64,000 nucleotides of DNA from Euglena gracilis (Eukaryota), in assembly GCA_039621445.1 (NCBI GenBank), contig CP154954.1:41781572-41845571 (forward strand). The letters are read 5' to 3'. A program made the translations under genes and the position numbers. The notes under the pieces are model-generated. The model was not told the origin of the DNA. It ran no database searches and worked only from the letters and a program-made list of their open reading frames with translations. Shown piece by piece: positions 62,030 through 62,770 of this stretch (position 1 is its first letter; each line of letters opens with the position of its first letter).

Positions 62030-62068
62030 GTCAATGCTGGTCGGCAGCAAGCCAACCACAATGCACGC
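62030..62068 (+). CDS. psaD: PsaD 39-nt exon
   Basis: After ttttcccAG: [13 protein letters not shown]. Confidence 0.88.
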
Positions 62069-62704
62069 AGCCAGAGCTCACAAGAGCACCCAAGAGCACA
62101 CACAAGCACCCTATAGCACCCATCCGACCCCCCCCCCCCCGGGGGTAGATGTTCCCCTGGGCTCCTGTCATGCTTGTGCTTACCGACCGGGGGGTGGGGG
62201 TGCCATAGGGTGCCTGCCTTTAGCAGGCACCCCCCCCCCCGGGGGGGGGTCCGTGGGGGACGCAGAAAATTTTCATTGAAAATGGCCTTTTCCAGGCCCC
62301 CGGCGCCGAGGTCGGGGGGGGGGAGTACCTGGTATGGGCAGGCACCCCCAAGAATCCTCCGAGGCGGGAGGATTTGAATTGGACACGGCAACCACGTGCC
62401 CATCCATTCCCAGGGTCGCGTGCACAGCCAAAAGGACGGGTAAAAGGAAGCGGAATTGTTGAGGGTTTTCATTTTGACCCCCCGTGTTTGGGCAGTTCTC
62501 TGAAAAAGATGCGGGAGAAAATAATCTGGGAGAAAGTTGCAGCTTCAAGGACCTTTTCTCACCTCTTTTGAACAAATTCTGGGAGCCGGAGTTTTTTCAG
62601 GAGTCCCAATACCCGGTGATTTTGCAAAAAAAAATCCACCATTTGTCCACCGGAAATTTGTTTGGACCCCTCCTGCAAGCCATGGTCTGGTGGGCGCTGC
62701 GGGC
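62069..62704 (+). other. Euglenid nonconventional intron in psaD (636 bp)
   Basis: agcCAGagctcacaagagca ... tggtctggtgggcgCTGcgggc; 17-nt imperfect terminal complementarity; in-frame junction NAR|SIG. Confidence 0.88.
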
Positions 62705-62770
62705 AGCATCGGTGAAAACGTGGAGCCCGCCTCCGTGAAGTTCAGCGGCAGCACCCCCAAGGATTTGTGA
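62705..62770 (+). CDS. psaD: PsaD last exon
   Basis: [21 protein letters not shown], matching the PsaD C-terminus. Confidence 0.9.
   Translation, partial: [21 protein letters not shown]

Follow-up and report, generated by a model that had tools for sequence, protein, structure and literature searches.

The 3 + 5 nucleotide cutting geometry of nonconventional introns in Euglena gracilis matches the 8-bp target site duplications of neighbouring CAG...CTG transposable elements

We analyzed a 64,000-nucleotide stretch of DNA from Euglena gracilis (assembly GCA_039621445.1, contig CP154954.1, positions 41,781,572 to 41,845,571, forward strand), referred to below as the window. The window is Euglena-type nuclear DNA, with two host genes (gene 1 and psaD) amid many mobile elements. 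The interval at 62069-62704, which a preliminary description of the sequence had singled out, is the last intron of the nuclear psaD gene and an ordinary euglenid nonconventional intron: its ends form a helix closed by CAG/CUG, and the RNA cuts fall 3 bases upstream and 5 bases downstream of it. [quoted passage not shown] We propose, with a probability of about 0.58, that most nonconventional introns originated from CAG...CTG MITEs, the 3/5 cuts leaving one copy of the TSD. This reading hangs together, agrees with independent findings in the literature and is probably right for the most part. Papers are cited below by PMC number.

The psaD unit lies at 58564-62770 on the plus strand, as indicated by its translation, the splice-site context and known PsaD chains. 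Its exons are 58564-58632, 59137-59221, 61636-61823, 62030-62068 and 62705-62770 (ending in TGA). Two of its introns are of the GT-AG type (59222-61635 and 61824-62029) and two are nonconventional: p3 (58633-59136, GCT-CAGGGTTT...CTG-TTTGC) and p4 (62069-62704, AGC-CAG...CTG-CGGGC). The p3 junction GSTG|TLLG agrees with the solved photosystem I chain 9uas_D, and the p4 junction NAR|SIGEN agrees with the C-terminal end of the solved chain 9vfj_D, a 698-residue polyprotein with three PsaD units. These chains fix the total removed, i.e., the CAG...CTG piece plus 8 nt, and not its division into 3 and 5: register shifts of -1 or -2 in p3 leave the protein unchanged, and p4 is slidable by 5 nt over a repeated gcagc. 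At the protein level, the removed lengths proposed for both psaD introns were thus borne out. At its C terminus, this psaD unit corresponds to the final unit in the 9vfj_D polyprotein, the middle exon is identical to chain 9uas_D, and the first two exons are nearly identical to it. No further psaD unit was found elsewhere in the window by tblastn.

To place the introns of gene 1, raw reads from three RNA-seq runs (X21, X22 and X24, with read counts given in that order) and contigs from a DNA run with the same organism label (X1) were mapped on positions 2001-22000 of the window. The joints given are the best-supported ones, 1175 further joints being unlisted. Gene 1 is on the plus strand and, by translation, encodes a small membrane protein. 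Its first exon (2090-2465) has a spliced-leader acceptor at 2090 and an ATG at 2096; trans-splicing at 2090 was seen as loose read ends before this position in 105 + 105 reads. The first intron, i1 (2466-3724, GGG-CAGGC...GCCTG-GTGCT), gave an RNA joint 2464->3724 that skipped 1259 nt (327/268/80 reads) and allows a 3-nt slide, so that four registers, 2466-3724 among them, are equivalent. The second, i2 (3946-9977, GAT-CAGGGG...CTG-TTGCC), gave a joint 3945->9978 that skipped 6032 nt (539/482/68 reads) without any slide and is therefore base-exact. The preliminary description had given i1, i2, p3 and p4 as N3-CAG...CTG-N5 introns; letters and coordinates were as described, and the reads placed i2 exactly and i1 within its four registers.

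The same description had treated these four as all the non-GT-AG introns of the window. The four are real, and the census was incomplete: the reads added i5, i6, i7, i8 and probably i9. A conventional GT-AG intron at 10142-12986 (370/386/51 reads) divides the stop codon of gene 1 (TA|A; 10139-10142 and 12987), and beyond the stop the transcript has at least five more introns in an apparently non-coding 3' untranslated region (UTR), with exons of 111, 39, 107, 54 and 23 nt. Intron i5 (13098-16823; joint in 308/315/86 reads) has no CAG/CTG. Intron i6 (16863-17006) is supported by RNA reads and has the helix ACUGUCUU/AAGACAGU. Intron i7 (17114-19083, GTG-CAGGGCAGC...GCTGCCCTG-GCGTT) uses two acceptors one base apart (19083/19084), the N5 form having 253/254/55 reads and the N6 form 121/175/34, a ratio of roughly 2:1. 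Intron i8 (19138-22577, TGT-CAGCTTCAACC...GGAGCTG-TCACT) was recognized from loose read ends behind 19137 (154/205/35 reads), the consensus of which matches window positions 22578-22600. Seven letters of read consensus past 22600, together with the splicing rule, make 22601-25527 probably a nonconventional intron as well (i9, GGC-CAGGCTTCC...AACCTG-ACCCT). With probable i9 counted, 9 of the 12 introns in the window are nonconventional and 3 are GT-AG introns.

The borders are neither GT-AG nor GC-AG, and removal from the mRNA is supported by RNA joints for i1, i2, i5, i6 and i7, by read consensus for i8, and by the PsaD chains for p3 and p4. The arrangement N3-CAG...CTG-N5 was present in i1 (in one of its 4 registers), i2, i7, i8, p3 and p4, and also in probable i9. 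Of the 8 nonconventional introns supported by reads or protein, 6 lose a piece equal to the helix-to-helix distance plus 8, CAG/CTG being present in 5-6 of those. When 6 flanking exon nt and the terminal 30 intron nt of each side were folded as a duplex, the ends of 8 nonconventional introns gave -20.7 to -33.0 kcal/mol (-23.8 for p3, -29.4 for p4) versus -7.1 to -13.1 kcal/mol for the 3 GT-AG introns. The MITE ends, at -23 to -49 kcal/mol, resembled the nonconventional introns, unlike the GT-AG introns. The downstream exon begins with a purine after i1 (g), i2 (a), i5 (a), i8 (g), p3 (a) and p4 (a); after i7 it begins with a pyrimidine (t) in the major form and with g in the minor form.

The window contains at least seven non-autonomous CAG...CTG elements with TSDs of 7/8 or 8/8. 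Three had been proposed before, with TSDs of 8/8, 7/8 and 7/8, and were confirmed as such: 20138-20537 (terminal inverted repeat, TIR, CAGGGTTTGATATAAGGA, 17/20; TSD ctctgggg, 8/8), 13816-14370 (same TIR family, TIR CAGGGTTCGATATA, TSD 7/8) and 21343-21627 (TIR CAGGCTGT, TSD gtccaacc/gtccgacc, 7/8). Four more were found. These are 13880-14344, nested in 13816-14370 (TIR CAGGGAATTTCTTAA, 15/20; TSD cccacctg, 8/8); 59996-60967, in a GT-AG intron of psaD (TIR CAGGCACCTATGG, TSD cccccacc, 8/8); 18236-18645, nested in an element at 17911-18683 (TIR CAGGCATTTGCTTAAGG, 17/20; C-rich TSD, 7/8); and an element starting CAGGCG inside i2 (5867-7310, TSD 7/8). Intron i8 contains 20138-20537 and 21343-21627, and every intact MITE seen lies inside an intron of gene 1 or psaD. 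The host element at 17911-18683 has CAT...ATG termini and a 7/8 TSD (gtccagac/gtccggac), and represents a second kind of 8-bp-TSD element, outside the CAG/CTG splicing code.

Among 641 CAG...CTG pairs with TIRs of at least 9/12, flank identity of at least 7/8 was found in 8 pairs in the true register and in 1, 0, 0, 1 and 1 pairs in five shifted registers. When TIR matches of at least 11/14 were required, which left 101 pairs, the exact repeats in the flanks showed a length peak at 8. Over six MITEs, 45 of 48 flank positions were identical, and the 8-bp TSD directly abuts the TIRs. Other terminal trinucleotides yielded tandem, palindrome or homopolymer artefacts or pairs with weak TIRs (9-10/12), plus the one CAT...ATG element. 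Further copies or fragments of the 20138 family lie at about 6197-6427 and about 25154-25408, and elements are nested in one another (13880 in 13816; 18236 in 17911), as in repeated, mobile families; being truncated or rearranged, the further copies had no usable flanks from which additional TSDs could be read.

For euglenid nonconventional introns, a splicing code 5'-N3CDG-/-CH'GN5-6|R was derived from 649,158 E. agilis junctions and from knock-in mutants; the spacers of 3 and 5(-6) were defined genetically, and knocked-in introns were spliced in a foreign exon (Nomura et al. 2025, PMC12501133). By script, cuts were placed in six MITEs on both strands, 3 nt ahead of CAG and 5 nt past CTG. The removed length was the element plus 8 in all simulated cuts. 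For the MITEs with perfect TSDs (3/3), the product in either orientation was identical to the empty site as reconstructed, in keeping with the earlier claim that the cut erases the element and 8 bases whichever way the element lies. A purine followed N5 in 9 of 12 simulated MITE/orientation cases. From the published splicing code, these MITEs are predicted to be competent nonconventional introns.

These results suggest the following mechanism. A MITE would insert into a transcribed exon, and its inverted-repeat ends would pair into a helix closed by CAG/CUG. The RNA would be cut 3 nt upstream and 5 nt downstream of the helix, so that both cuts would fall between bases 5 and 6 of each duplication copy. 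With the cuts at the same position in both TSD copies, ligation would leave one intact copy, i.e., the pre-insertion mRNA, for either MITE orientation. Mutations accumulating later would erode the TSD along with most of the inverted repeat, and further MITEs could nest inside and lengthen the intron. We infer that real MITEs are spliced, that the introns descended from MITEs and that the 3 + 5 rule is tuned to an 8-bp stagger. That every intact CAG...CTG MITE with an 8-bp TSD in Euglena is a ready-made nonconventional intron, with a non-spliceosomal machinery that measures 3 and 5 nt from the TIR helix because the two add up to the 8-bp stagger of the transposase, we regard as an even bet.

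The elements had been assigned to the hAT superfamily. The 8-bp TSD fits this assignment, which rests solely on TSD length and terminal letters; a hAT transposase was present in 0 of 10 long open reading frames (ORFs) of the window. The MITEs start with CAGGG (3/6) or CAGGC (3/6). The hAT terminal consensus is YARNG; starts with CAGGG or CAGAG fit it, and CAGGC departs from it at position 5. "hAT" is thus a reasonable, unproven label for the MITEs. It is somewhat unlikely that the link between introns and MITEs holds and the elements belong to another superfamily with 8-bp TSDs, such as Merlin, a P-like group or an undescribed one. In addition to the missing transposase and the CAGGC start in half of the MITEs, this alternative has on its side the Merlin families with 8-bp TSDs reported in E. 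gracilis (PMC8101967), and no Euglena paper describing hAT elements was found in our literature searches. According to PMC8101967, however, Merlin TIRs end in GG, with TSDs of 8-9 bp; the TSD length fits, but the GG end does not suit the elements here, which start with CAG, or CAGG, right after the duplication, which abuts the C, and the CAGGG and CAGAG starts fit hAT.

A second alternative is that the match is a coincidence: the 3/5 spacing would be the ruler of an unknown machinery that reads a helix and cuts and ligates RNA, the MITEs would be unrelated residents of introns, and the introns would have arisen, for example, by double-strand-break repair (Milanowski et al. 2016, PMC4770533) or by conversion of conventional introns. 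We consider this unlikely. A number of observations weigh in its favour and against an origin of introns from MITEs. Introns i5 and i6 splice without CAG/CTG. In i5, the helix (GAAGUG/CAUUUC) carries GAA/UUC in place of CAG/CTG and keeps the 3/5 geometry, with the outermost pair at +4/-6; the outermost pair of the i6 helix is at +4/-5, a 3/4 spacing. The minor N6 acceptor of i7 would take out 9 nt, not 8. Because of these three introns, the splicing machinery appears to read the terminal helix and to measure its cuts from it, rather than strictly to count 8. No RNA joint removing a free-standing MITE was present among the best-supported joints listed, 1175 others being unlisted, and a DNA-transposase domain was found in 0 of the 10 longest ORFs of the 64-kb window by Pfam. 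Five of the introns are in the 3' UTR, where exact erasure is unneeded.

The relation of the introns to particular MITE families is subject to similar objections. A BLAST comparison of intron termini with the MITEs in the window gave no match, hits being limited to the nested repeats inside i2 and p4, and the intron ends have just 5-8 terminal letters in common with MITE families of the window. DNA contigs over five termini of four gene 1 introns had a single-copy depth of 71-82. The intron termini are thus single-copy where depth was determined, and the earlier expectation that introns and MITE families share termini was not borne out within the window. On the other hand, CAGG starts 5 of the 7 CAG/CTG introns and all listed MITEs, and the first 8 letters of p3 are common to the 20138 MITE family.

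The 8-nt flanks of the introns would be relics of a TSD if the introns descended from MITEs. Their identities were 4/8 (i1), 2/8 (i2), 3/8 (p3) and 6/8 (p4), as had been reported before, and 2/8 (i7), 4/8 (i8), 0/8 (probable i9) and 1/8 (i5, helix only). The p4 flanks, cacgcagc/cgggcagc (62064-62071 and 62700-62707), stand beside a TIR of 13/20; this combination counts against coincidence. Taken alone, the 6/8 of p4 has a P of about 0.004-0.006, or about 0.03-0.04 when the 7 introns examined are allowed for. The four introns claimed first gave 15/32 against 25% expected (P about 0.006-0.008), and the six solid CAG/CTG introns gave 21/48 (P = 0.0035). The excess faded as introns were added (21/56, P = 0.026, with i9; 22/64, P = 0.06, with i5 also, i.e., over all introns conforming to the geometry), and the signal rests largely on p4, again to the disadvantage of a MITE origin. 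The flanks of p4, read earlier as an apparent TSD relic, are above chance, and the overall excess is weak and driven by that one intron. Within the window, the evidence for descent of introns from MITEs is thin.

Published data bear on the choice between coincidence and a MITE origin. Coincidence needs three chance matches, namely of the terminal trinucleotides, of the inverted-repeat architecture and of the spacer sum with the TSD length. It also leaves unexplained the excess of introns that are slidable via short direct repeats, reported for 84.4% of all and 69.1% of nonconventional E. agilis introns (PMC12501133), as well as the consensus Y|R at both junctions (PMC6221363). By our own arithmetic, about 44% slidable introns are expected by chance, against the published 69.1%. 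A strain-specific, newly gained intron of E. agilis gapC has eight-nucleotide direct repeats at its junctions, which its authors read as double-strand-break repair, a published reading that favours coincidence (Milanowski et al. 2016, PMC4770533). A repeat of eight nucleotides is also exactly what an 8-bp TSD predicts.

The reverse direction, in which the repeats would be nonconventional introns turned mobile, for example by reverse transcription or reverse splicing of circular intron RNA and integration, is very improbable: nonconventional introns do leave as circles with full-length ends (PMC11282704) and all intact MITEs seen lie within introns of transcribed genes, but perfect long TIRs with duplications fixed at 8 bp, together with nesting at arbitrary sites outside exons, typify cut-and-paste transposition, and the element ends have no poly(A) or other retro-signature.

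Both the intron consensus and the transposon-origin proposal, which the preliminary description had taken as prior knowledge, are indeed published (PMC12501133, PMC3935182). A MITE origin was proposed in 2014, in a paper that reported no transposable element identified in euglenids up to then (PMC3935182), and in a 2024 review (PMC11282704) CAG/CTG is already termed a "TIR" and the repeats at the junctions are termed "TSD-like". The main text of Nomura et al. (PMC12501133) contains none of the words hAT, TSD and duplication, and hAT is likewise absent from the 2024 review (PMC11282704) and the 2014 paper (PMC3935182). In the open texts that our search covered, we found no paper that links the 3 + 5 spacing, in Euglena, with hAT or with a duplication of 8 bp. 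Already published, then, are the 3/5 rule, the MITE origin, the TSD-like junction repeats and the 8-nt repeat at a newly gained intron; within the literature searched, two points appear new, namely the explicit equality of spacer sum and TSD length and the fact that actual MITE families of a donor-like kind are named.

The introns themselves are the same as published euglenid nonconventional introns, which likewise have non-GT-AG borders, CAG at +4 to +6, CTG at -8 to -6, a terminal helix and mostly a purine as the acceptor exon's first base. Their share of about three quarters here (9/12) compares with 71.8% in E. agilis (PMC12501133). What differs from published cases is the presence of neighbouring free-standing CAG...CTG elements with 8-bp duplications and the match to 3 + 5. 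Introners of Micromonas and dinoflagellates are similar in that a MITE-like transposon becomes an intron when it inserts, with splice sites inside or beside the TSD, so that one TSD copy is removed with the element; they are removed by the spliceosome, the element bringing one splice site and co-opting the other, have 3-5-nt duplications and occur as many near-identical copies (PMC11282704). In Euglena, by contrast, a helix-ruler cut would fall inside both 8-bp copies and is probably non-spliceosomal, and the ends of the gene 1 introns are single-copy; many near-identical intron copies were not seen, the intron ends having no match elsewhere in the window. Non-canonical introns of Fritillaria borealis, which derive from MITEs (Henriet et al. 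2019, via PMC11282704), also have non-GT-AG borders with TIRs and TSDs; their positions are species-specific, they are read as neutralised transposon insertions, and an adapted U2 spliceosome acts at AG-AC/AG-AT sites rather than by a terminal-helix rule.

Like the elements described here, hAT MITEs have 8-bp duplications and short TIRs starting CAG(G/A)G, lack coding capacity and nest in one another. They differ in that no transposase was found here in the 10 longest ORFs and half of the elements start with CAGGC. The maize element Ds was reportedly described as acting as an intron, by Giroux et al. in 1994 (a paper cited by Milanowski et al. 2014), with splicing that uses spliceosomal sites and is mostly imprecise. 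The Merlin elements of E. gracilis are DNA transposons with 8-bp TSDs from the same genus, unlike ours in TIRs said to end in GG (PMC8101967).

Several further observations concern the introns and MITEs. Intron i2 contains nested repeats, among them the element at 5867-7310 and a copy of the 20138 family that is truncated and ends at 6427. Clusters of palindromic motifs (cgctagcgaccatggt and relatives) occur in this 6-kb intron at 5494-5560, 6046-6170 and 7185-7300, and yield false TIR and TSD signals. A small nested MITE spotted by eye in p4 had good TIRs and no TSD, and was dropped. The interiors of MITEs contain long C-runs opposite G-runs, i.e., palindromic homopolymer cores (20190-20300, 20480-20515, 58060-58260 and 62127-62260), which dominate the k-mer depth of the DNA run and give many spurious inverted repeats. 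The word depth of the DNA run over MITE bins was very high, in part from homopolymer tracts. A DNA-run joint 18234->18664 (429 + 1 letters skipped; 4 contigs; side 22) was considered as an empty site of the host repeat and was left unused because its size differs from that of the MITE plus 8 (418) and its flanks are homopolymers. A metagenome collection probed with one 17-nt MITE TIR gave no MITE copies: the 46 loci had a single match each, none with both ends, which looks like chance level.

In the reads of gene 1, the window sequence AAA at 17013-17015 is replaced by GGG, and single changes occur at 2149, 2153, 2155, 13066 and 19112. The single changes are allele or strain differences, not editing, because X1 DNA contigs carry the same letters; the change at 17013-17015 was seen in RNA reads only. 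In X24, a run of size-fractionated RNA, 83-87 reads cover a 96-nt piece (13603-13698) and continue into unrelated sequence on both sides; this segment is also part of an abundant RNA from another locus.

Among other features, a Pfam scan of the 10 longest ORFs revealed retroelement domains only: a LINE-type reverse transcriptase (2-1318, minus strand), a Ty3-like gag-pol (31161-36812, plus strand) and an integrase/chromodomain remnant (55937-57257, minus strand). The Ty3-like retrotransposon is apparently intact, with long open frames for gag/protease and for reverse transcriptase/RNase H/integrase, and a retroelement remnant lies just upstream of the psaD unit. An Rfam search of the whole window gave no matches.

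How euglenid nonconventional introns arose, and why their spacing is 3/5, have been standing questions since the 1990s, and our finding sharpens the known transposon-origin hypothesis into a testable form, short of proving it. If 3 + 5 is the footprint of an 8-bp TSD, the splicing code would make evolutionary sense as a means of repairing the message exactly, specific MITE families could be named as donors, and the idea could be tested in the existing EgGSL2 exon 2 knock-in assay. If a MITE is a ready-made intron, any exon insertion, in either orientation, would be removed from the mRNA without a trace, the circle released would consist of the element plus one whole duplication, and the share of about 70% nonconventional introns in Euglena would be explained. 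The splicing code would then have evolved as a transposon eraser, perhaps taken over from the machinery by which the transposon itself recognizes its ends. Euglena would thereby provide a non-spliceosomal case of the introner principle, in which transposons make introns via their own target duplication, and the predominance of nonconventional introns in one lineage would be accounted for.

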